A stretch of DNA of 64,000 bases from Escherichia phage vB_EcoM_EC001. How positions within the stretch are numbered: position 1 is the stretch's first letter; every line of letters begins with the position of its first letter. Location of the stretch: sequence record MN445185.1; one strand, written 5' to 3'. This document shows positions 1-11,418 of this stretch, piece by piece. The notes beneath the pieces are model-generated. The model was given only the letters and a program-made list of their open reading frames with translations. It searched no databases and was not told where the DNA came from. The position numbers were made by a program, and so were the translations under genes.

Positions 1-984
1 TATTAAGATCTTAAAACGCGTGCGGGCGCGCGCGTGATCCTTATTAAGAGATCGTGATCGGACGGAAGACCGAGATCGGGTACCCTGTGTATTTTTTACG
101 TGGTTTCCCTATCGTGTGTTCAGACCACCACTCGATGTCCAAAAACCCATAGCTTCGGTGGTCGCCTCCCTGGTCGGTAGACTCTGACAAGTCGACCCAC
201 AACACCAACCCGTCCGGGGACGGATTTTTATTCCAACGACAAGCTCCACGAAAATCCCCGCAGAGGGACTCACTGCTGTGTGACTCACCGGCTCCTGGAC
301 GCCTACGCCTCGAGCCGGTAATTTTTTGATTACGTGAGTTTGTTGTTATATGCGAATAGCGATTGACCGCGCCAATGGTCCAATCACTTTTAAACCCTGC
401 ACGCTAGGGCTCCAAGTCCTGGGACTGATACCCAGGACGCTTTTTCGAAAATACCTACCGTGGTGTCTTCGACAAAGCGCAATCTAACACTGCGTGATTT
501 ATTATGTTCTGGAAAACTTTCGCCGTGGAACAGAACCGGTGAGCGTCGGCGGGGATTCCGACAATCACCACCCATTCAGGTACTCGGTAGATAACCGACC
601 TGCCGACGGTGCTACGTCGGGCGTAGTTCGGTTTGCGAGAGTGTCGAGAAAGTCGACTGCGCACCCATGACAAAATCCGAGTTGACCGTGGCAGCGCCAG
701 AGGACTGGGCAGCGGAGAGACGTCGTTGAACTTACCTCCGATAGTTATCGCTGATTCCGCTCTGGCGTCGGGCCAAAACTGATTCGAATTCGGCGTTGCG
801 TCGAAAAGGGGTCTGCGTGTAGAACCGCAGACTTGGGGGATAACTCCAAAGTGGGGTGATCGGATCTTGACGGCTCGGAACAGACGAGAGGGGTGGGTAC
901 TCCCGTTGTGAAACGCCAGTACCTGGCTGATTAAAATTTACAGATTCTGCGTGAGGTATGATAAACCAAACGGAGAATTAAACC

Positions 985-1560
985 ATGAACTTGTATCGCA
1001 TCGGGTTTTACCGGAACGAGGTACCAGAATCGGTTTTGGTTGTCTTAGCCGAAAACGAGGAGCAGGCCAAATCCTTCTGGCCGGTTAGCGCAGAGCGTAC
1101 AGCGGTTGCGTGCTGCTACGACGGTCCAGTTGCCGCAACGGATGTCGCTGCAGGCGTAGTCCTGAAGATGGGCCGATGGGAAGATTACTCCCATCCCGGT
1201 TTGGAGTTTGTTTCCGAACCTGCCAGACATTCCTGGGAATTTCCCTCAGGCAACACCGAGACGTATTTCGGATTTCAGGTTAAACAACCTTCGACGCTCA
1301 AACTGTACCTGGTGTACAGCGACGCCGCTACCGAAGACTACGTCGATTCCGGAATCATCGTCGGGGCAACAACCCCTGCTGCGGCATTCGCACATTGGGA
1401 CGGTGATAAACCCGGAATCGTTTCGGTCTGTGAGCTACCACTTGAAGCCGGTTTGGTTACGAACATCAAGTGTGAGCAAGGCCAGGAGCTGACTTGGATC
1501 CGCCAGGATTACCTGACGGAAACGACATTCGAGTACACACCGAGGAAGGTGACCCAATGA
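985..1560 (+). CDS. hypothetical protein (MNLY N-terminal family)
   Basis: 191-aa ORF; stop overlaps next start (ATGA). N-terminal about 35 aa resembles ORF 2283..2525 (MNLY...V.VV.A..EEQA). Confidence 0.5.
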   Translation: MNLYRIGFYRNEVPESVLVVLAENEEQAKSFWPVSAERTAVACCYDGPVAATDVAAGVVLKMGRWEDYSHPGLEFVSEPARHSWEFPSGNTETYFGFQVKQPSTLKLYLVYSDAATEDYVDSGIIVGATTPAAAFAHWDGDKPGIVSVCELPLEAGLVTNIKCEQGQELTWIRQDYLTETTFEYTPRKVTQ

Positions 1561-2525: not shown

Positions 2526-3300
2526 ACAGTGGGCTTCGGCCCACTAACCCTATTCGAGCCGTGATACTTACTCAGATTGTGCGGGTTGATGTCCCGCATG
2601 AGCCGGTAGCAGCTCAGACCTACGGTAGACCAATAAATCCGTAGCAGCCAGGTACACAAAGCACCAGGTCGCTTGTACAGGATGCTGGGTATCTGACCGG
2701 TCATAACCTCATTCGATACGAGACACGTTTATGCATGAAATACTCCAGTACATCAGGATGTTGATTTCCAACATCCGGTTCTGGGTATTCAGTCATGTTT
2801 GGTTTACAGGCGATGGGTTTTCCCGTAAGGGCCCCACTTACAGACTGGCGTCTCCACGACAACCGTCCCTAGGGGACAGGCAAGCACCGGCCCATTAAGC
2901 CGCTACGCTACGCCTGTAAATCCACAATCTGATAACCGAATGGGATTGAGTTCCCAGTGTTAGGGTGACTGTGTGTCACCGTAGGCGCGGTACCTCATAC
3001 GGCCGGTACGCCACGAATGTACGTGATAGCGGGTGGTGCTTGGAGACGCTAAGACCTGACCTTACGGACAGGCTCAGAAGAAGAAGTCCATCACCTGTAT
3101 TCAGAAATGAATTTAGGTTAATTATTGGAAGTGGCGAAATCACTTACGTGATAACTTAGTAGTATGCAACGAACAATACCAGAGTGACTTTACGAGGTTA
3201 CTGTGGTATATGTCGGTGCGCCGGGCAACGTGTTGCCGCAGATAAGCCCGAGGGAGCTGAGTGCACTAACACACGCCGGGATGCACCGGCACCTTACAAC

Positions 3301-3373
3301 GGCTTTGTAGCTCAGGTAGGTAGAGCAGCCTCTTCGAGGAAGGTCGCTGGTTCGAGACCGGTCAAAGCAAGAG
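3301..3373 (+). tRNA. tRNA-like element, possibly a degenerate tRNA or pseudogene (anticodon arm does not fold canonically)
   Basis: Canonical D arm gtagctcaggtaggtagagc and T arm gctgg-ttcgaga-ccggt, acceptor 6 of 7 bp, but only 19 nt between D and T arms so no standard anticodon stem-loop. Confidence 0.35.
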
Positions 3374-3828
3374 CAGCGAAGTTAGAGGAATTAACACCCG
3401 ACTCATAATCGGATATTTCGACGGTTCGAATCCCTGCCACTTGCTCGCCCTATTTGTGTTATCCTTATCCCGAAGGCATTCGAAATAAGACGCGTATCCA
3501 CACACGGGTCAAGGATAACACGAACCACTTCCGCGGTCACCGTGTCCATTGCCGCCTACCTGCATGGGCTGTCCTCCGACACGGTGACTTCGGGCCAAAT
3601 TACAGACCAGGGCCGTTTGGGTTTTTCTTACGCATCCGTCCAGAGCCACCTCGAGCCCTGGTTTGTTCTCCCTTTTCTGTTCCTAGTTAGCCAACTAAAT
3701 CAATTAAGCCTGGTGCGTTGCCCTGGGAACAGAAAAACTTATTCGGTTACACACCGAACCCACCCACGAGGGATATGTCGTGGACTACCAATAGAAGCAG
3801 CAATAGTAGAAGTAAGAAGGAAAGCAAC

Positions 3829-4650
3829 ATGTTTACAGTTAAACGTGTGATTGATGGTGACCGCATTATTACCGAACATGAAAAAGTTCGTATCGGTGAC
3901 CGTAAGTCTCGTGTATTCCGCGAGGCATTAAAAATGCTCGAGAACGAGCGATTCGACATTGTTGTCGATGATGAAAAGTTAGCCCTTAATCCGGGGTTAA
4001 AACGCGTTGCCCCTGATGTGCCTGATCCGAACACCATGCATTTGTCTGACTACTGCAGCTGGTCGCACAGATTATATAAAAGTCAGGTTTATGCACACAC
4101 GTATTTGCGGCAGCTTTTCCCCAACCTTATTATCCCCGATTTGGAAACGGTCGAGGTGTTTAACTGCAACGCACGCGAGTTTATTAGCTACGTGCTAGAT
4201 AATAAGGGCAATGCTATCTTGGTACTGGACACAAGTTCCAGTATACCTGATGCTGTGGCTAGCATACGTGGTGAAATCATCGGTTACGGTACTCCCCCAG
4301 AGAAATTAGGCTGGTACAAACCATCTCCTGATAGCGACATGGCGATCATTGTCTACACTCAGGAAGAACTGCAACAAGTCGAATTAGAGCCTGGCCCATC
4401 TATCGAGTTCACTGATGTCCAGGAGCAGTCGCAGTGGATTAACGGTGAGTCTGTTGTTACTGTTTTAAAAGGCGCTCGCCCTGGCGACCGGTCAGTCGAT
4501 GAACTGATTGGCGCAATGTGCATCGAAGAAGAATCTGGATACGATCCTGATAACCAGATCAGTACCGGTGCGTTGTACGAACTGTTTTATAAAGGCGACG
4601 AAGTCTACGTGGTTAACTCTCACGGTAAGACTACCGACGCCCTTCGCTGA
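3829..4650 (+). CDS. hypothetical protein
   Basis: Internal ATG of track ORF 3718..4650 with AAGGAAAG RBS; 274 aa; followed by terminator. Confidence 0.6.
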   Translation: MFTVKRVIDGDRIITEHEKVRIGDRKSRVFREALKMLENERFDIVVDDEKLALNPGLKRVAPDVPDPNTMHLSDYCSWSHRLYKSQVYAHTYLRQLFPNLIIPDLETVEVFNCNAREFISYVLDNKGNAILVLDTSSSIPDAVASIRGEIIGYGTPPEKLGWYKPSPDSDMAIIVYTQEELQQVELEPGPSIEFTDVQEQSQWINGESVVTVLKGARPGDRSVDELIGAMCIEEESGYDPDNQISTGALYELFYKGDEVYVVNSHGKTTDALR

Positions 4651-4740
4651 ATTAGCTAACGCCCAGTAGCTATGTTCCTGACGATTAGCCCTCGTCTGAC
4701 CTTGTAAGACCTTGTAGATTTACATGCCAACACCAGGGAA

Positions 4741-4784
4741 GTCCTCACTCTTCGGAGTGAGGACAACTCTTTTATTTTTTTTTG
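4741..4784 (+). terminator. intrinsic terminator (hairpin gtcctcactcttcggagtgaggac plus T-run)
   Basis: Perfect GC-rich stem with TTCG loop followed by a T-run. Confidence 0.6.
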
Positions 4785-4797
4785 TATTCCAAATATA

Positions 4798-4825
4798 CAC
4801 AGATAGATATTACCTAAGTGAGATG
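4798..4825. promoter_or_regulatory. conserved promoter-like motif copy 1 (cacAGATAGATATTACCTAAGTGAGATG)
   Basis: One of 7 dispersed copies; closest match to copy at 58724; sits about 50 nt upstream of ATG 4875. Confidence 0.45.
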
Positions 4826-4874
4826 AGAAAGCCTCATCTGAATTCTCCCAACTCGACTATAAAAGGTATGCATC

Positions 4875-5825
4875 ATGTACAGACCAAGTAATCCTAGCGC
4901 TATTGAAGGATTAAACCAGGATGGCTTCAGCCTCGCAGAAGCAACCCGCATTCGACCTTTCTTACCTCGCAGATTCTTCCCTTTCGGTTCGTTATACAGA
5001 ACGAATTTCGACGCTTGGGAAGCGATACGTGCTGTAAAAGATGCACTACAGTACAAGAACTTCGAATTCCGATTTGTTTTCAAATGGGGCAACGGCGAAT
5101 TGCTCCACCACTTCGGATTCCAACAGAACGAGTTCATTGAGTATACCTCACCTACGTACCACACCAGGTTCTTAAGTATCGAATTCGTTCGCCATTTCGG
5201 CGATGCACTCTTTACGGAACGGGCTACAGATGAAAACCACGGACGTAGGCTGATGTTAACGAACGGCGCACTGCGCATCAAGATGAATCGTTTACGGGAA
5301 GCGTATAACCAGCTTATCAATCCTGAACCGGTAATGTTTCCAACTGTAGCTGATTTGAACATTACACCGCTCCAGTTACCTGTGGATGTGGATAGACCGA
5401 TTCTGGCAATCCACGCTCTCCAGGCAGGCTATGCAAACTGGTATAAAGAGCACAGTCTCCCGAACACCAGATTGAACATCGCACCGTTTGAGTTATGCCT
5501 GTTCTTAACGTTACGCAAACAACTCGAGCCAGAAAACTTAGACTTGCGTTATCTGGCTAAAACAGATAGCGGTAGTTACTACCCAACGACCTGGATGCTA
5601 GCGGCTGTACTACCCGGCGGTGAAATTATCGGTAACCCTGTCACCGATGTTCAACAGTTACCATCACCGTTAGCACCACCGAAGGATTCAATCTATCCAT
5701 ACGCTTCGTGGTACGCGAGCAGTATTGGCGTGAGATGGTTAATGTTACACGTTCCTGAAGAGGTCTATAATTTATTCCCGCATGAGCAATGGCTCCGTGC
5801 GTATGAAAATCGGTTTGGTTGGTAG
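4875..5825 (+). CDS. hypothetical protein
   Basis: 316-aa ORF between promoter-like motif and terminator. Confidence 0.65.
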   Translation: MYRPSNPSAIEGLNQDGFSLAEATRIRPFLPRRFFPFGSLYRTNFDAWEAIRAVKDALQYKNFEFRFVFKWGNGELLHHFGFQQNEFIEYTSPTYHTRFLSIEFVRHFGDALFTERATDENHGRRLMLTNGALRIKMNRLREAYNQLINPEPVMFPTVADLNITPLQLPVDVDRPILAIHALQAGYANWYKEHSLPNTRLNIAPFELCLFLTLRKQLEPENLDLRYLAKTDSGSYYPTTWMLAAVLPGGEIIGNPVTDVQQLPSPLAPPKDSIYPYASWYASSIGVRWLMLHVPEEVYNLFPHEQWLRAYENRFGW

Positions 5826-5835
5826 TCGATGCTTT

Positions 5836-5870
5836 TGAGGGAACTTCGGTTCCCTCTTTTTTTTCTTTTT
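5836..5870 (+). terminator. intrinsic terminator (gagggaacttcggttccctc plus T-run)
   Basis: Stem-loop plus long T-run; followed by conserved TTTTTTCACG...TCTTATAG module also seen at 11855..11900. Confidence 0.55.
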
Positions 5871-5907
5871 TCACGACTGCCTCAGAATCTTATAGGAGGA
5901 AGTTACC

Positions 5908-6324
5908 ATGATTACGCAGTGCTATTACCAGACGCAAGATTTATTTAAAGCATTGGAAGAAAATAAGTTACCCACGACTTTAAGACCGCAGTGCAGTTAT
6001 TCAAGAATGCTTGCAAGTGAGGTCTTTCCGGTGCTAATGCAGTTGCCTCAATTCCAACCGTGGCTCGACTCGCTAGATGTGGTAGATGTTGTGGCTATCT
6101 ACACTGGGTCAGACACACCAACAATAAATACAAGCGAGTGTTTATCCCGTAGCGAATCGTCGGCGTTAAATGAAATGCCGCAGCTAATGCCTTCTTTATT
6201 CGATTCGATGTGCGCTGCAGTTATGCAGAAACGACTACCTTATGAGGAAGTATTCGCCATTGTGTTAGACAGCATCCACGCAATGAATTATAAACACTAT
6301 AAAACCCTCGGAACCTTACACTGA
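5908..6324 (+). CDS. hypothetical protein
   Basis: 138-aa ORF with GGAGGAAG RBS. Confidence 0.55.
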   Translation: MITQCYYQTQDLFKALEENKLPTTLRPQCSYSRMLASEVFPVLMQLPQFQPWLDSLDVVDVVAIYTGSDTPTINTSECLSRSESSALNEMPQLMPSLFDSMCAAVMQKRLPYEEVFAIVLDSIHAMNYKHYKTLGTLH

Positions 6325-6391
6325 CTTTTTTACGGCAGGCACCTATCTTGTAGGGAGTCTGTGCTGTAATAGATTCCAAAGGAGATGCTCG

Positions 6392-6781
6392 ATGAAAAAC
6401 AAACTGCGTCCGCTGGACGTGATTATGGCGCATCCGGATACCCTCAAGAAAATTAAAGTGGTCAACGAACTTGACCGTGGTCTCCTGGATACAATTCAAT
6501 GGGGTTTTACTTTCCACCCCGATGAAGAGAACAACACGCGTCAATTAGATGTCTGCGACGGTGTAGAAATTGATTGGTCTTCTAACGAAGGCTTCAACGA
6601 TGTCGTCGATTATGTCAAACAAGCCACCGTTCCACCTGTGTTTCCCGTAGCGGGTTTAGCGGAACACACAATTTCTCTCCGCCGACTGGTTAACGCTCAA
6701 CCGGAAATCGTGCGTGAAGGTGAGGCGTGGACGTCAGGTATTACCCATCATCTTAAGGATGTGCTGGGTGTTGCCGGTTAA
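6392..6781 (+). CDS. hypothetical protein
   Basis: 129-aa ORF, AAGGAGA RBS, ends at bidirectional terminator. Confidence 0.55.
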   Translation: MKNKLRPLDVIMAHPDTLKKIKVVNELDRGLLDTIQWGFTFHPDEENNTRQLDVCDGVEIDWSSNEGFNDVVDYVKQATVPPVFPVAGLAEHTISLRRLVNAQPEIVREGEAWTSGITHHLKDVLGVAG

Positions 6782-6833
6782 AAAAGAAGAAGTACCTCTA
6801 CTTGCGTAGAGGTACGGAATCTTTCTTTTTTTG
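6781..6833. terminator. bidirectional intrinsic terminator
   Basis: A-run, hairpin gtacctctac-ttgc-gtagaggtac, T-run, between convergent genes. Confidence 0.6.
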
Positions 6834-7646
6834 TTACGACTTGAAGCGTCCACCGTTCATGTAGTTCCAACGGTTTCCGATGTTGTCGTTGTGGACCAGA
6901 CAACGCTGCATTTTCGGCAAGGTGTCTTCGAACATTTGACCTGCGTCCGAGTAACCTTCAATAACGTTTCTGAAGGCACCGAACTCCATACCATTTTCCA
7001 GTTTACCAGAGTCCATGTCGAAGATCATGGTGTTGTAAATATATTGCTTAACAGCCATGACTGCCAGCTCACCTACAACCGGATAGAATGCTGGTTTGAT
7101 TTCGTTCATCTCCTGGGATAGTTCGTACTTCACCACGAGTTTGGTAGAGTAAACGAACATGCCTGGGTCTTTGATACGAATGGTATTCGGACCGAGCACT
7201 TCGACTTCTGGTGAGGCGATGCGCGGCATCGCGGATTGACTATCAACCACTTGTTGAGTGGACGCCAGTACGCCAGAGGTGGCACCGTCCAGATATGAAC
7301 CTGCTGGAGGCATGGTGTACGCCTGTCCGGCAACGGGTGTTACAGAAATGTGGGCATCCAGAATAGGACGACCGCCTGTTTTGATGTCGTCGAGATAATA
7401 CACGCGACTGAAATAATCTTGCGTGTCGTTATCCCAAGGGACACCTTGCAAATCTACTTCTTGATACTGCCCCATTCTCGAGATTTCAGGGACCAGAATC
7501 TCACGAATAACACGTTGTTGGATTTCGTTATCTACAGAGCTTGCAATTCCCAGTAACTTGAGGTTTTCTGGAACAAAAGCCGCCTGTAGAATCGGGGCAG
7601 GGATATGCTGTCTGATTTTACGCAGACAGTAGTCGATAACATTCAT
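6834..7646 (-). CDS. hypothetical protein
   Basis: Track ORF 6834..7676 begins with TTG; in-frame ATG at 7646 is preceded by AGGAG at correct spacing; 270 aa. Confidence 0.65.
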   Translation of the reverse strand: MNVIDYCLRKIRQHIPAPILQAAFVPENLKLLGIASSVDNEIQQRVIREILVPEISRMGQYQEVDLQGVPWDNDTQDYFSRVYYLDDIKTGGRPILDAHISVTPVAGQAYTMPPAGSYLDGATSGVLASTQQVVDSQSAMPRIASPEVEVLGPNTIRIKDPGMFVYSTKLVVKYELSQEMNEIKPAFYPVVGELAVMAVKQYIYNTMIFDMDSGKLENGMEFGAFRNVIEGYSDAGQMFEDTLPKMQRCLVHNDNIGNRWNYMNGGRFKS

Positions 7647-7809
7647 TCTAAGGCTCCTATGAAGCTCGTAGGACAACTCATACCATCGGGTAATGCTATC
7701 CCATTACCTGACATTAAAATACGTTTTACGACCTTTATGTGCGCACCATACTCGAAGAAATTTTGCATAGATATTATCTTCGTGAATTATCCTTAAGGAG
7801 CATTTCTCG

Positions 7810-8130
7810 ATGACGCGCATGTTCTTTAATTTCTCTCCAGGGACAAATGAACAGATTGTGCCTGCGGACATGTTACTGTGCGCGATACAAGAAGTTATTT
7901 ATCCCGGCACGCATGAGTTTCCACGTGAGTGGACACGCATTGCCGAAAGTTATTTTGGCACGGAAGCGTGGTTTGTTATTTCGGCGTTGGGCCGAAACCA
8001 TCGCTATCCCTTTCATTACAAAAATGGAGTTGTGCAAACGTGGTCAGAATATACCTCGAACCAGCTGCGGTTCATTCTAGCTTCTGGGGGCCTGTCGATG
8101 CTTCCCAGTACGCTACCGCTCTGCGGATGA
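7810..8130 (+). CDS. hypothetical protein
   Basis: 106-aa ORF with TAAGGAG RBS; stop overlaps next start. Confidence 0.5.
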   Translation: MTRMFFNFSPGTNEQIVPADMLLCAIQEVIYPGTHEFPREWTRIAESYFGTEAWFVISALGRNHRYPFHYKNGVVQTWSEYTSNQLRFILASGGLSMLPSTLPLCG

Positions 8131-8690
8131 GCCAAAAAGAACGCGAGATGTTAACTGTACAACTGTTACACACTGCGCTCGAAGATATCTTTTACTCCGT
8201 TCCGGAAATGCCTAATGCACGTATGGAACCTTTGCTGGAACCTTATACTGACGCTTTTAATCTCACGATGATGTTGGTGGCTGACCAGATCATACTTCCA
8301 CCGAAAACAGTTCCTGTGGAACGTACACACGTTTCCAGTGGCGGTTTGGGTGCCCCGGTTAATAAGACGAAAGAGACCGTAGCGATTTTACGTTCTACCG
8401 AATATCTTATCGGATTGGCATTCGAAGACTGTTACAACAGTTTCCTGGACAGTATCCATGCACTTGTGGAGAATGCTGTGAAGGCCGCCAAACACCCGTT
8501 TAATCGTTATGCGACGATTAAACTGGAACCACACATAACCCGTCGTGGGCAGGTGCAATCTCTGGAGTTACAAATTGGAGAAGACATCAGATTCATCCAC
8601 TACCGCCAATGCTTCCCAAACAAACGATATCGTCCGTCTGGTACTGATCGATCACATCGCCTCGACGGCATACGTCAGGATATTGAATGA
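8127..8690 (+). CDS. hypothetical protein
   Basis: Internal ATG (MSQKEREML) of track ORF 7929..8690; upstream part of that ORF is Cys/Trp-rich and overlaps 7810..8130, so judged non-coding. Confidence 0.5.
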   Translation: MSQKEREMLTVQLLHTALEDIFYSVPEMPNARMEPLLEPYTDAFNLTMMLVADQIILPPKTVPVERTHVSSGGLGAPVNKTKETVAILRSTEYLIGLAFEDCYNSFLDSIHALVENAVKAAKHPFNRYATIKLEPHITRRGQVQSLELQIGEDIRFIHYRQCFPNKRYRPSGTDRSHRLDGIRQDIE

Positions 8691-8703
8691 CCCCAGCGAC
8701 ATC

Positions 8704-9012
8704 ATGTTCAGCATGTATGATGTTAATACGGGGTTGAAGCATATCATTCTCTGTATGCTCGAATACATGATTCCGACATTTACAGAACACGGTACGTGGG
8801 ACGTAGAAACAGTCTCACTGATTGTTAGGTGTTATCGTCCCAGAAGTCATTCGCGGGAAATCCACACCATCGCGTCACACGTTCATCGTGCTATCTGTGA
8901 GGAAATGGGCATTCCTCCAAAAGGGTATCGGTATCATTATAATCAAGCAGACAGAATTCTCCGTTTCATTCCACGTAAGGTAACAGATGTCTATGATGAC
9001 GGTTTATACTGA
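8704..9012 (+). CDS. hypothetical protein (start uncertain)
   Basis: First ATG downstream of the stop of the preceding gene within track ORF 8545..9012; true start may be upstream non-ATG. Confidence 0.4.
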   Translation: MFSMYDVNTGLKHIILCMLEYMIPTFTEHGTWDVETVSLIVRCYRPRSHSREIHTIASHVHRAICEEMGIPPKGYRYHYNQADRILRFIPRKVTDVYDDGLY

Positions 9013-9394
9013 GTTCGTGCGATTGACTTGCCGACTCACCGCACTCGTCAAAGAGAATCTCGGCATCGATTACCAGGATGCTGCGGTAGAGCTTGACGAC
9101 TATATCGAGCAAATTGTTCGGTTGCATGTTCTGCGGAAAAAATATGGCGTTATCGATAGCATGATACGTCAGTTCTTTATGGAGTATGTTCACGATAACC
9201 CAATCATTACCCCAACCACGTCGGCAAAATACTGGGCTCTTTGTCGATTTGAGTTGTTGATACGGGACACCGATTGCATCTGGCAAGCAATCGACGAGGA
9301 CATGACTTTTTTACCACAATCCGACTTTCTCCTCTGGCATGTAGGAGACGGTGTCTGGAAAATGTTAACTACAGGGGTTACTTACAATGATTGA
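8987..9394 (+). CDS. hypothetical protein
   Basis: 135-aa ORF in tightly packed operon-like array. Confidence 0.5.
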   Translation: MSMMTVYTEFVRLTCRLTALVKENLGIDYQDAAVELDDYIEQIVRLHVLRKKYGVIDSMIRQFFMEYVHDNPIITPTTSAKYWALCRFELLIRDTDCIWQAIDEDMTFLPQSDFLLWHVGDGVWKMLTTGVTYND

Positions 9395-9896
9395 GCGATC
9401 TCATTTTTATATCCCAGGCTATCAGTTATTGGCTGGGCCGTTAACGGAGTTTTCGCCAAACGATGTGCTCCGCGAAGTGAATGACGATTTGAACTCGATA
9501 ATCAATACCGCCATGAGCTTCGTGGAACGTGGAACCATTGGTAGTGAGTTAAAGTTTATGATGAACAATACCTTTGGGTTTGTTTCTCGTACACTGAATG
9601 CGCACGGCGTTGTGTTGGAAAATGAGCAAGTAATCACTTACGGCACCGCAATTCAAAACATCGGTCGTGCGTATATGACCGCCGTATCGCAGTCTCCTTA
9701 TTGGTTTACTCACTACGGTCGTTGGGTCGGTGCACAATACACAACGCGCAATCCGGCGGATGTCGAATTCTTATTAGACTATAACGGTGGTGATAAATTC
9801 CCACAGTTTGCCAGCCAGGAAGCGTACGAGCGAATCACCCCACAACTTCTGCCTGTTATCGATTTGCTTATCGGTAATCTCGGAGGTCGTGTATGA
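9387..9896 (+). CDS. hypothetical protein
   Basis: 169-aa ORF overlapping neighbours by a few nt. Confidence 0.55.
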   Translation: MIERSHFYIPGYQLLAGPLTEFSPNDVLREVNDDLNSIINTAMSFVERGTIGSELKFMMNNTFGFVSRTLNAHGVVLENEQVITYGTAIQNIGRAYMTAVSQSPYWFTHYGRWVGAQYTTRNPADVEFLLDYNGGDKFPQFASQEAYERITPQLLPVIDLLIGNLGGRV

Positions 9897-10381
9897 GCGT
9901 TCTGTTTGATGTGGCGGATATTGCGAACCAATATAGCGCGACTCGGTTTTACGAGCATGTTCGTGAAGCGGCATTGCGTGTACTGGAAGCCAGTAACCTG
10001 GAGATCGATGAAACACAGATACGTGATTTTTATCAACGTTTTGCGTTTGCATATATCATCGGTGTGAAAACTCGTGACCCTTCGACGATGGTTGATTTGT
10101 TACAGGAAGACACGCTTGAACCTCTGGGCAATTGGGAGTTGGTGTCCGATGGTCTGTCCGTTGACCAGTTCGCTAAGGAAACGTCTGTCGATACGACGTT
10201 TCTGGCAGCACAAGGTTCGCCCGAACAACATCAAGCCGCCTTCGGCGCTGCGGTAAGTTTGCTGGCCGAAGAGTTAACAAACTTAACTGGTTTTGCTGGA
10301 CTGATAGAGTCGCTGTATCCGGGGCGATATCAAACGTATGTAGGTGATAGTTTTAACGATGTGGTGTTAATCTGCGAATGA
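9893..10381 (+). CDS. hypothetical protein
   Basis: 162-aa ORF, start overlaps previous stop (ATGA). Confidence 0.55.
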   Translation: MSVLFDVADIANQYSATRFYEHVREAALRVLEASNLEIDETQIRDFYQRFAFAYIIGVKTRDPSTMVDLLQEDTLEPLGNWELVSDGLSVDQFAKETSVDTTFLAAQGSPEQHQAAFGAAVSLLAEELTNLTGFAGLIESLYPGRYQTYVGDSFNDVVLICE

Positions 10382-10809
10382 AACTGTACATGACCATAGG
10401 CGAAGTCTTCAAATATGAGTCGTTGTTGGCACGGGCCGAGATTGCTGATACTAGCGAGATCGAGCCCGCTGTCGCTTATTTGTTTCTGGCCAGTTACGCC
10501 GAATTAACGGTTCGTTCTATTGTTAATGGGCTAGGTAAGGGTAAGAACTTTCTTACTTTTATTCCCCCAGACCCTGCGTTGATACTGGAACAGTTGAGCG
10601 GGATGTGGGGTACTGAAAAGGTGCTGCCTCTAAACTGCTACAGCATGAGCAGTGGGATTAAGGATGATGTTCGGTTCTATGAAATCCTTTCCGTGATAGA
10701 ACGTGTGTGGGGCATGGCTGGCTTGACTCCAGAAGACGGAGCAAAAAAGACAAAGGTTTCACTCCTTATGAATGAAATTGGCAACGCACTCATCTGTGTT
10801 GAATGTTAA
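10378..10809 (+). CDS. hypothetical protein
   Basis: 143-aa ORF, ATGA overlap with previous gene. Confidence 0.55.
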   Translation: MKLYMTIGEVFKYESLLARAEIADTSEIEPAVAYLFLASYAELTVRSIVNGLGKGKNFLTFIPPDPALILEQLSGMWGTEKVLPLNCYSMSSGIKDDVRFYEILSVIERVWGMAGLTPEDGAKKTKVSLLMNEIGNALICVEC

Positions 10810-10818
10810 GGAGTACGA

Positions 10819-11418
10819 ATGATCTACAAGGTGATCGCCAACCACTTGATTAATGTGGACTTGGGGGTCGTGGGGTATCTTCCGGACGGTATGCGGTTTT
10901 TGGATTTGGTGGTTGACACCGTAGTCCGCCTACCGCGTATCACCGTGGAGATACCCGTAAAAGAATTGGACCAGGACGAGATGCACGAACTTATACGTGA
11001 AACGCTGACCAGCTACACGTACGAGTTTCGTTGCATGTTACCTCGCACCGACCTTACGTTCTTGCACGACTTCTTTACGTTACTGACTGACGAGTACCGT
11101 CGGTGGAAGTTTAATGTTGCAATGGAAGCCAGCACTGAATCACATTTTAACGGGCTGACACCATTGTTAGATTTAGCGTTGATGTACAAAGAGCAAGACA
11201 GCTCACACTGGGCCACGCTCAAGCACTATACGTTGGATCTAATGGCGACCGCCGTAACGGAGGCAGTTATGGTGCATTATGTTGAGCCGGTGAAGATGTT
11301 CTTAGAGGCGCATAATGGCGCTATCCGTACGTTGGTTCTCAAGGTGGACTTCCCGAAAACACCAGTGACCAATGCTTTGGATATGAGGCTGCTTATTGAT
11401 GTTCCTGAGGAGGAATAA
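10819..11418 (+). CDS. hypothetical protein
   Basis: 199-aa ORF with TAAGGAG RBS. Confidence 0.55.
   Translation: MIYKVIANHLINVDLGVVGYLPDGMRFLDLVVDTVVRLPRITVEIPVKELDQDEMHELIRETLTSYTYEFRCMLPRTDLTFLHDFFTLLTDEYRRWKFNVAMEASTESHFNGLTPLLDLALMYKEQDSSHWATLKHYTLDLMATAVTEAVMVHYVEPVKMFLEAHNGAIRTLVLKVDFPKTPVTNALDMRLLIDVPEEE

Follow-up and report, generated by a model that had tools for sequence, protein, structure and literature searches.

The first 980 nucleotides of the DNA analysed here (the window, a 64,000-nt stretch of Escherichia phage vB_EcoM_EC001, MN445185.1) quite probably form the right-hand 55% of a conserved, gene-free locus of ~1.8 kb, in which a DNA element at the left edge is followed by rightward RNA genes on the + strand. 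Comparative analysis indicates that + strand RNA structure has been conserved over most of 97-941, and that the largest predicted RNA constitutes a new, well-supported family, for which a covariance model is ready. Our best guess is that the locus holds a stand-alone phage RNA adjoining a Dam-marked origin or packaging element. We put forward only tentatively the fuller reading, in which 506-941 would be a trans-acting, stand-alone RNA of an undescribed class found in at least five groups of Enterobacterales giant phages, and the A/T- and GATC-rich element a Dam-marked replication origin or packaging start.

Among the nucleus-forming jumbo phages that infect enteric bacteria, SPN3US serves as the genetic model; formation of a phage nucleus has been shown for both SPN3US and Asesino (PMC13282480). 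In the literature searched, no mapped origin, mapped packaging site or functional non-coding RNA beyond tRNAs was found for SPN3US-like phages. Here a single, sharply delimited DNA candidate for an origin or packaging site lies together with a new RNA family, and both the RNA and the DNA element are directly testable. If the reading is true, the RNA family would include nucleus-forming phages among its carriers.

The window is the record start of an SPN3US-like jumbo phage; it is 98.3% identical to E. coli phage Lh1B, and there are 36 related records. An earlier note, made from the letters of the window, had called the first 980 nt a leader. This description does not hold, since the gene-free stretch extends 790 bp to the left of window position 1 (1,774 bp in all in SPLA5c, where the site is internal to the record) and the window edge only marks where the record was made to start, by database convention. 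Upstream of the edge we found more conserved non-coding sequence and an A/T element of ~105 bp, rather than the gene end with one terminator that the earlier note had considered. Base pair 1 of the relatives was set by alignment to SPN3US, and the genomes are permuted (PMC5690319). We therefore rejected the record starts near this site as a sign of a physical end, because bp 1 was copied from SPN3US. The locus is kept in Seoulvirus, Erskinevirus, Machinavirus, Wellingtonvirus, the ChrisDB/Caitlin group and one Enterobacter lineage; DNA identity in other genera is 67-79%, and the annotation there consists of none or tiny ORFs.

That no plausible gene lies in the first 980 nt was borne out. The longest ORFs touching this region encode 58 aa on the + strand and 72 aa on the - strand, and all 13 related records that contain the whole stretch in one alignment piece carry zero annotated features there. 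Indels that are not a multiple of three number 6-15 per lineage pair, and there is no common reading frame, indicating that the stretch is not coding. It could nevertheless hide small or decayed protein genes, as small ORFs are annotated in some relatives (for example, Huxley gp278 and phiEaH2) and the - strand is open across most of the RNA core in many lineages; these annotated ORFs, however, are not conserved, and the frame-breaking indels and the absence of any ORF above 72 aa also stand against this.

The large RNA and its candidate start comprise the following features.

480-509, + strand: conserved blocks CAATCTAACACT ... TTTATTATGTTC, candidate promoter and start (TATG, G506) of the large RNA
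506-675, + strand: 5' domain of the large RNA, with hairpins 506-536, 538-569 and 591-610 (double changes in helices 18, 20 and 23)
674-941, + strand: multi-helix core of the large structured RNA (covariance model R1, covariation and strand test)

The blocks at 480-509 are invariant among the aligned Seoulvirus and Erskinevirus lineages and also occur in ChrisDB, Caitlin, L022 and the Enterobacter record; Machinavirus has them in part, without the TATG, and in Wellington, L019 and L020 they could not be recognised. The position of the TATG suggests G506 as the start site, and the RNA likely spans 506 to ~935 (~430 nt, with a core of ~270 nt), as judged from the sequence. The 5' domain, which carries a conserved CACCCATTCAGGTAC at 569-583, is long in Seoulvirus and Erskinevirus, whereas Machinavirus and the ChrisDB group have a short version. 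Within the core, helix P1 pairs CCGU at 686-689 with a GCGG-type strand at ~869-872 and closes a multi-helix junction. Further elements are a conserved 9-nt loop, GAACUUACC, at 728-736, hairpins at 786-805 and 811-832, a Shine-Dalgarno-like GGGGUGAUC at ~855-865, a near-invariant block, GGCUCGGAACAGACGAGAGGGG, at 872-893 and a 3' hairpin at 904-915 with a GNRA tetraloop. A small ORF following the Shine-Dalgarno-like run was considered and dismissed, given a 1-nt insertion in the SPN3US group and reading frames that disagree.

Covariance model R1 scored 255.8 bits at the core, which is present as a single copy in the window. In a MAFFT alignment of the core from 12 lineages, which was not fitted to any structure, 90.6% of the cells in 66 pairs could pair, compared with 36-51% when the partners were slid, and 24 pairs showed double changes compared with 5-9; the covariation score was reached by 0 of 500 shuffles. 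When 14 lineages were aligned to the model, 92.7% of cells were paired and 32 pairs had double changes. The upstream part (36-692; six sequences from five lineages) behaved similarly: 89.1% of cells were paired, compared with 38-46% in the controls, and double changes occurred in 31 pairs, compared with 3-11. Over all these alignments, slid partners gave 35-51% paired cells. The counts were made on the alignments from which the structures had been derived, a circularity that is reduced, though not removed, by the slid and shuffled controls and by the lineages that were held out. Held-out L019 and L020 scored 105-108 bits, with helices preserved through unrelated sequence, and a held-out Enterobacter lineage scored 142-147 bits.

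We then considered the strand on which the structure acts. Hairpins of this kind could operate in DNA, as cruciforms or single-strand origins, and the palindromes of the A/T element could indeed be cruciforms. Pairing in the core, however, needs G-U pairs, which become A-C on the other strand: with 109 G-U cells, 90.6% were paired on the + strand and 77.1% on the - strand, and the GNRA tetraloop is likewise confined to the + strand. We consider it highly improbable that the conservation reflects hairpins acting in DNA, or hidden genes as discussed above, and prefer a structured + strand RNA.

A cmscan of 1-1000 against Rfam 15 at E<=10 gave no matches, including to GOLLD, ROOL, RNase P, tmRNA, group I/II introns, riboswitches and T-box. 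A scan of L001, positions 4500-11000, at E<=1 returned only tRNAs and two chance plastid matches, located elsewhere. A search for the large RNA in 100,044 bacterial and archaeal genomes gave zero matches, and the literature searched contained no description of it. It is restricted to jumbo phages of Enterobacterales, with one copy per genome. Metagenome matches L027 and L029 were dismissed as chance. GOLLD and ROOL are large, ornate RNAs of phages and prophages that often lie beside tRNA genes, and both are Rfam families. The RNA described here resembles them as a large, multi-helix, non-coding phage RNA near tRNA genes (tRNA-Trp lies 1.2 kb downstream, and a tRNA-like gene at 3301-3370); it differs in being smaller, in lacking an Rfam match at E<=10 and in its restriction to Enterobacterales jumbo phages. 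In Wellington and Kwan a 615-bp cassette encoding an HNH endonuclease splits the gene of the large RNA, and the intact RNA may therefore not be essential.

Possible contacts of the RNA with the ribosome were also assessed. The loop GAACUUACC is an exact complement of 23S GGUAAGUUC, a candidate that we rejected as chance level, since 31% of shuffled rRNAs yield a 9-mer that is just as conserved; likewise, the invariant loop CGGAAAGAC is identical to 23S sequence at the peptidyl-transferase ring, again at chance level in the shuffled-rRNA control (31%). A complement of 9-12 nt to the 3' tail of 16S rRNA is present in 9 of 14 lineages and absent from the other 5, a borderline result that 1.7% of shuffled tails reach. 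If this match at the edge of significance is real, it would suggest the ribosome as the partner of the large RNA.

The region between the left-edge DNA element and the large RNA contains two short units, and a further promoter-like motif precedes the first gene.

92-118, + strand: promoter-like motif TTTTTTACGTGG-N-CGTGTG, of the class TTTTAC[AG]-N12-15-T[AG]TG, placed here in all lineages
118-232, + strand: first short structured unit, ending in terminator-like T1 (stem 210-223, T-run 225-229; conserved helices and fold z-score)
257-328, + strand: hairpin 257-282 and terminator-like T2 (stem 287-294/312-319, T-run 322-327; sequence and helices 8-10)
321-352, + strand: second promoter-like motif, TTTTTTGATTACGTGAG-N-TATATG (alignments A1 and A6)
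350-446, + strand: second short unit, with hairpin 395-409 and terminator-like T3 (stem 416-438, T-run 441-445; helices 15 and 16)
438-479, + strand: hairpin 2, in which the T-run strand CUUUUUCGA pairs with UCGACAAAG (covariation)
937-984, + strand: promoter-like motif TTTACAGATTCTGCGTGAGGTATG (937-960) and ribosome-binding site GGAG (972-975) of the first gene, ATG at 985 (motif class and sequence)

The promoter-like class occurs in Lh1B in 10 copies on the + strand and 2 on the - strand, compared with ~4 expected on both strands combined, and 7 of the 10 + strand copies precede an annotated start by less than 100 nt. The second motif includes a block, TATGCGAATAG, that is conserved in alignments A1 and A6. 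Another genome-wide motif, TAGATATTATCT, was not found in 1-980. In phiKZ late promoters, TATG overlaps the start site (PMC7598289). The present class similarly has T(A/G)TG at its end and is located 25-60 nt before start codons; it differs in adding an upstream TTTTAC at fixed spacing.

The form of an intrinsic terminator, a G+C-rich hairpin followed directly by a T-run, is seen at 210-232, 287-328 and 416-446, and the first 4000 nt hold 11 terminator-like sites compared with 4.0 expected. The stems of T1, T2 and T3 are followed by ATTTTTATT, AATTTTTT and GCTTTTT, respectively. The earlier note had recognised the first and third of these hairpins, correctly, and had missed the second. Its suggestion of small-RNA loci came close, in that the hairpins are conserved terminator-like elements within a larger region of conserved RNA structure. 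Double changes were found in the helices at 123-163 and 165-223, and folding z-scores were -3.9 for 80-450 and -3.2 in another calculation. As with intrinsic terminators generally, a G+C-rich stem precedes the T-run, and the stems vary between lineages as the elements keep their place; at the place of T2, for instance, Erskinevirus has a different stem, CGCCCC...GGGGCG, with a T-run. T3 is found in nearly all lineages, and CTTTTTCGA comes after it in 11 of the 12 aligned, the exception being Wellington because of its HNH insertion. Unlike in an ordinary intrinsic terminator, the T-run of T3 pairs with downstream sequence in the conserved hairpin 2, which has 15 pairs with compensatory changes across 12 lineages and whose helix 17 is 98% paired. 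Such pairing appears to fit read-through better than clean termination.

Taken together, these features suggest an arrangement in which phage-type promoter-like motifs (TTTTAC-N-TRTG) precede two short + strand units ending in conserved hairpin and T-run elements that may act as terminators, which would be followed by the large multi-helix RNA and then by the first protein gene with its own promoter-like motif. The short units and the large RNA may be separate transcripts of the phage RNA polymerase, with their ends, and whether there are one or several, judged from motifs only.

We also weighed whether the structured RNA is instead a long cis-acting 5' leader, akin to a riboswitch or attenuator, for an operon of an HslV-like peptidase and tRNA-Trp, both of which are frequent downstream neighbours. 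The RNA lies immediately upstream of the first gene on the same strand, no canonical terminator was found between the two, and T3 with hairpin 2 resembles an attenuator arrangement. However, the promoter-like motif at 937-960, which is conserved and belongs to the genome-wide class, is placed between the RNA and the start codon. The next gene also varies by lineage, being a 191-aa gene here, HslV-like in SPN3US and others elsewhere. Moreover, at 270-430 nt and with a five-way junction, the RNA is far above known leaders in size, and it matches no Rfam cis-regulatory family. We therefore consider a cis-acting leader unlikely, and favour a free-standing large RNA, probably with a protein partner.

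At the left edge of the window lie the following features, none of them assigned to a strand.

1-16: right end of the ~105-bp, ~95% A/T element, which lies mostly left of the window (full element in SPLA5c, Lh1B and SPN3US)
7-77: GATC cluster of five sites (starts 7, 36, 50, 56 and 74), the right half of a two-sided cluster
16-35: alternating CG box ACGCGTGCGGGCGCGCGCGT, right copy of a direct repeat, able to form an 8-pair hairpin
31-61: conserved right-flank motif CGCGTGATCCTTATTAAGAGATCGTGATCGG, in a flank invariant in alignments A1 and A6

The A/T element includes the palindrome TTAAGATCTTAA at 3-14. No other 100 bp of the 240-kb Lh1B genome is as rich in A/T (95%, compared with 74% for the next best), and the element and its covarying inner palindromes are conserved in all lineages examined. 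Two direct copies of the CG box, spaced 145 bp apart, bracket it, and GATCCTTATTA of the right flank is exact in most lineages. The five GATC sites and the CG run that the earlier note had pointed out are there as described. The repeated units it had reported were confirmed in that TATTAAGA is found at 1-8 and 42-49, but there are only two copies, and they diverge afterwards (TC and GATC). The GATC sites form the densest cluster of the window: GATC occurs 141 times in 64,000 nt (2.2 per kb, observed/expected 0.57), so that ~0.18 would be expected per 80 nt against the 5 observed in the first 80. With its left-hand continuation, this cluster is the densest in the whole Lh1B genome. Most lineages have 4-8 GATC sites within 340 bp around the A/T element, and ChrisDB and Caitlin 2-3; background densities of 1.5-4.6 per kb in the loci compared, and 2.0 per kb over the Lh1B genome, correspond to ~0.5-1.6 per 340 bp. 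The close relative Lh1B encodes a Dam-family methylase at 99759-100577 (PF02086, 2.9e-49; TIGR00571, 238.8 bits against a cut-off of 114.85), and its family suggests GATC specificity. We infer that the A/T-GATC element may act as a site in the DNA that is read by way of adenine methylation, carried out by the phage's own Dam-family enzyme, with a replication origin as the first-ranked role and a packaging start as the second. A likeness of the element to plasmids was rejected, the only match being a 222-kb Enterobacter 'plasmid' which itself belongs among the relatives of these phages.

An origin formed by the A/T element and positions 1-80 would be compatible with the RNA reading: the A/T tract would unwind between GC clamps, GATC methylation would time firing, and the flanking promoters would prime. 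Known precedents are the GATC-rich oriC and P1 oriR, with methylation timing, and the origins of T7 and T4 (oriF/oriG), in which a promoter adjoins an A/T tract and yields primer transcripts. As in oriC, T7 and T4 oriF/oriG, we see a unique A/T tract, GATC clustering and adjacent promoter-like motifs, which flank the element on both sides. The site is the maximum of the genome for both A/T and GATC, its inner palindrome is maintained by compensatory changes, and the phage has a methylase of its own; moreover, no origin is known for these phages, and a 2026 review mentions none. The resemblance ends with the initiator, since neither iterons nor initiator boxes such as DnaA boxes appeared in the repeat search (two-copy families only) and no recognisable initiator gene is adjacent. 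Neighbouring proteins have no recognisable function: the conserved upstream proteins of 377 aa and 169 aa gave no Pfam match and no PDB sequence match, and their PHROG families are functionally unassigned (pLDDT 55.8 for the AlphaFold model of the 169-aa protein). The few GATC sites in ChrisDB and Caitlin also weigh against an origin. The earlier note had suggested that the region could be origin-like, and this may hold, as the element is conserved and unique in the genome. GC skew lends it no support: over the whole Lh1B genome, cumulative skew mirrors gene orientation with no origin-type turn at the site, and the minimum at the record start is trivial. An origin is thus possible, though doubtful.

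The GATC clusters that flank a central tract, although weak in ChrisDB and Caitlin, also recall a packaging start of the P1 type, which terminase would recognise and whose cutting would be gated by adenine methylation. P1 pac spans 161 bp and is under Dam control; its seven TGATCA/G hexamers form two clusters, between which lie an IHF site and the site of cutting (PMC10028697). The two share GATC-containing repeats in two clusters and a Dam-family methylase encoded by the phage itself, some sites here read TGATCC or TGATCG, and the large terminase gene lies 3.4 kb upstream. In contrast to pac, the centre here is a ~105-bp A/T tract with CG clamps, the site is outside any terminase gene, and the consensus is matched in part, other sites being AGATCT, GGATCG and AGATCG. 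T4-like headful cutting without a sequence requirement is thought to apply to these phages (PMC5694885), for which neither a small terminase nor physical ends are known, and the record starts here derive from the SPN3US alignment rather than from mapped ends (PMC5690319). A packaging start is therefore less probable than an origin, and improbable in itself.

Two observations concern the records. Several relatives carry spurious small ORFs annotated over the large RNA, and records that start in the middle of the locus keep it hidden.

The first 3 kb of the window matched 36 phage records, the closest being E. coli phage vB_EcoM_Lh1B (98.3%), followed by the Salmonella phages JN03, SPLA5c and SPN3US, all of them Seoulvirus members and 240-kb jumbo phages. 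The Lh1B record and the window share position 1. Since base pair 1 in the relatives was set by alignment to SPN3US (PMC5690319), and these genomes are regarded as permuted and headful-packaged (PMC5690319; PMC5694885), the record start is a convention, and the label 'leader' that the earlier note gave to 1-980 is an artefact of it. In SPLA5c, where the site is internal in the record, the gene-free stretch measures 1,774 bp. It is bordered on one side by a functionally uncharacterised 169-aa gene (3.4 kb downstream of the large terminase gene) and on the other by the first + strand gene; window 1-984 is its right-hand 55%. The left half, outside the window (SPLA5c, L001 5213-5900), also carries conserved motifs and hairpins: TTTTTAACCA is present twice, the hairpin GTAACCGACACACACTGTCGGTTAC shows a compensatory change in pEa29 (GTATCC...GGATAC), and TCCCCCTTAGGGGA is found against a variant CCCCTCCAGGGG. 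The absence of a gene from 1-980 was borne out, the longest ORF being 58 aa on + and 72 aa on -, with nothing annotated over the stretch in the 13 relatives that hold it in one piece. The Lh1B record (OK428535.1) contains 879 N, and the alignment of several SPFM records to this locus breaks up into 19-40 short pieces, a sign that their sequence there may be of poor quality.

Other genera retain this non-coding stretch at 67-79% DNA identity (SPAsTU; Erwinia phages pEa_SNUABM_29, phiEaH2, Asesino and Huxley; Salmonella phage pSal-SNUABM-04), as long invariant blocks with variable segments between. Pattern scans of viral, metagenome, phage and plasmid collections yielded ~15 distinct sequences, the most divergent pairs being ~45% identical. 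In a MAFFT alignment of 12 lineages, fitted to no structure, the consensus fold of the core (window 676-941) comprised 66 pairs in 12 helices. Paired cells amounted to 90.6%, compared to 36-51% with partners slid by 1-3 columns; 24 pairs had changed on both sides, compared to 5-9 in the slid controls, and the covariation score was reached by 0 of 500 shuffles. A covariance model built from this alignment found exactly one copy per genome (window 674-941, 255.8 bits). It also recovered lineages outside model building, namely L019 and L020 at 105-108 bits, in which helices P2 and P3 are maintained through unrelated sequence, and an Enterobacter lineage at 142-147 bits. Extension to 14 lineages gave 92.7% pairing and 32 pairs with double changes. 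The RNA is on the + strand: 109 cells are G-U, and on the opposite strand only 77.1% of cells pair. The core is not coding; any two lineages differ by 6-15 indels of a length not divisible by three, and they have no reading frame in common. The core is organized as follows.

Elements of the core (+ strand)
P1: long-range helix of CCGU with GCGG, closing a five-way junction
Inside the junction: long arm tipped by a hairpin whose 9-nt loop, GAACUUACC (728-736), is conserved; also three more hairpins
After P1: near-invariant hairpin CUCG-GAAAGA-CGAG, within a 28-nt block almost unchanged in most lineages
3' end: hairpin with a GNRA tetraloop (GUGA, GGGA, GAGA or GCGA)

Window 36-692 also behaves as structure: among six sequences from five lineages, 89.1% of cells were paired (38-46% in controls) and 31 pairs showed double changes (3-11 in controls). 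The hairpins with T-runs noticed earlier are present at 210-232 (T1) and 416-446 (T3), and a third lies at 287-328 (T2). The suggestion of small-RNA loci was correct within its limits, but overlooked the chief feature of the stretch, the large RNA.

Elements on either side of the core
416-438: terminator T3, among the best-supported upstream elements
438-479: hairpin 2, in which the T-run of T3 is paired with UCGACAAAG, supported in 12 lineages
506-536, 538-569 and 591-610: further best-supported hairpins
Upstream of the large RNA: CCTAACACT-N-TATG
92-118 and 937-960: copies of the TTTTAC-class motif
321-352: variant of the TTTTAC-class motif

Because Machinavirus and the ChrisDB group are missing ~400 nt of the upstream part, only T3, hairpin 2 and the core are universal. 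A further widespread block, CCTAACACT...TATG, is not recognisable in Wellington, L019 and L020, and occurs in Machinavirus without TATG.

The motif TTTTAC[AG]-N12-15-T[AG]TG occurs in Lh1B 10 times on + and twice on -, with ~4 expected on both strands together, and an annotated start follows <100 nt after 7 of the 10 + strand copies. In its TATG end the motif resembles phiKZ late promoters (PMC7598289). The positions of these promoter-like motifs suggest four units, which would run from 118 to T1/T2, from 350 to T3, from 506 to ~935, and as an mRNA from ~960. The RNA might alternatively be a simple leader of the next gene; the promoter-like motif between the two, and the fact that the next gene differs across lineages, argue against this. 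A putative second class of phage promoter is the 12-nt motif TAGATATTATCT, present at 4804, 7768, 16655, 16748, 25205, 26621 and 30364 (+), with 21 matches at up to 2 mismatches (3.3 expected). Each copy is preceded by AAA..ATTT.AGA, and most are followed within a few tens of nt by an RBS and ATG. The motif is absent from 1-980.

A search of Rfam 15 (E<=10) gave no match to the RNA, the invariant core had none in 100,044 representative bacterial and archaeal genomes, and the literature searched, a 2026 jumbo-phage review included, does not mention it. GOLLD and ROOL are large phage-borne RNAs near tRNA genes; they are the nearest analogues by context, but the RNA described here is a member of neither. 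In 9 of 14 lineages a run of 9-12 nt complementary to the 16S 3' tail occupies the same position, and only 1.7% of shuffled tails equalled this; we regard it as a lead and not a finding. An exact 9-nt complement to 23S and a 9-nt identity to the A2058 region were at chance level and were set aside as functional clues.

The left edge of the window belongs to a DNA element. Five GATC sites do lie in the first 80 nt (starts 7, 36, 50, 56 and 74), compared to an expected ~0.18 per 80 nt, and form the densest cluster in the window. GATC is depleted overall (141 sites, observed/expected 0.57), as one of several palindromic tetramers strongly avoided in the whole window (CTAG 0.17, GGCC 0.53, TATA 0.55). 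The reported direct repeat (TATTAAGA at 1-8 and 42-49, two copies) and the CG run at 16-35, able to form an 8-pair hairpin, were likewise found. In the relatives, ~105 bp of near-pure A/T with a central palindrome lies directly left of position 1. When the complete Lh1B genome is treated as a circle, no other 100 bp comes near this in A/T content (95%, next best 74%), and the surrounding 350 bp are the GATC-richest (7 sites; genome mean 2.0 per kb). The tract sits between two direct copies of the CG box spaced 145 bp apart, with the GATC clusters outside both. The layout recurs in every lineage examined.

Layout of the element, in order
Left part: A/T-rich motif AAAAATTCTTTTTAAAACA..ACTTA, hairpin, GATC sites, CG box, TTTCCTACAGGATCTTTTAAAAGA
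After TTTCCTACAGGATCTTTTAAAAGA: A/T tract, CG box, GTGATCCTTATTA(A/C)GAG with further GATC sites

The inner palindrome is kept as a palindrome despite sequence change (ATACCTTTAGGTAT, ATCCCGTAGGGAT, ATATCTTTAGATAT, AACTCTTTGAGTT). GATC positions move between lineages while their clustering is kept, at 4-8 per 340 bp in most and only 2-3 in ChrisDB and Caitlin. Lh1B has a gene for a Dam-family methylase (PF02086 at 2.9e-49; TIGR00571 at 238.8 bits, cut-off 114.85), and the clustered sites could therefore be methylated even without host Dam access to phage DNA.

Our first, low-confidence candidate is a replication origin. It would fit the unique A/T tract, the clustered GATC sites and the promoter-like motifs to either side, although a repeat search found no iterons and the cumulative GC skew of Lh1B, a check proposed earlier, only mirrors gene orientation. 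Two GATC clusters around a central tract, together with the phage's own Dam-family enzyme, would also fit a P1-type pac site (PMC10028697); this we hold to be still more doubtful, as the hexamer consensus is matched only in part and packaging of these phages is thought to be T4-like (PMC5694885). Searches with two conserved upstream proteins gave no clue to the role of the element, and 'origin-like' remains a testable idea for the left edge.

The RNA gene can be interrupted. In Wellington and Kwan it contains, 10 nt upstream of the invariant block, a 615-bp cassette that encodes an HNH endonuclease (Erwinia phage Wellington, L039 3163-3777), and both halves are still conserved. The left border of the cassette matched the Rfam int-alpA RNA just short of the threshold (31 bits, threshold 35.8). 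A 222-kb circular 'plasmid' of Enterobacter ludwigii (NZ_CP134650.1 84193-90317) has the gene order of these phages, an A/T element of ~190 bp surrounded by about 12 GATC sites, and the RNA (146.9 bits); it was submitted as a plasmid but is related to these phages. The same lineage includes four IMG/VR contigs of 151-225 kb.

Window 985-1560 holds a 191-aa gene with no match in Pfam or PHROG, absent from SPN3US. It looks like an insertion at the start codon, because in SPN3US an HslV-like peptidase gene directly follows the RNA behind the same leader, GGTATGATAAACCAAACGGAGAATTAAA. A tRNA-like gene at 3301-3370 (+), in a gene-poor stretch (~2704-3829), was recognised by the Rfam tRNA model at 33.6 bits (threshold 29) but not reported by ARAGORN; SPN3US has 'tRNA-OTHER' annotated at the matching place, and SPLA5c has two tandem tRNA-like matches (L001 9574-9717).
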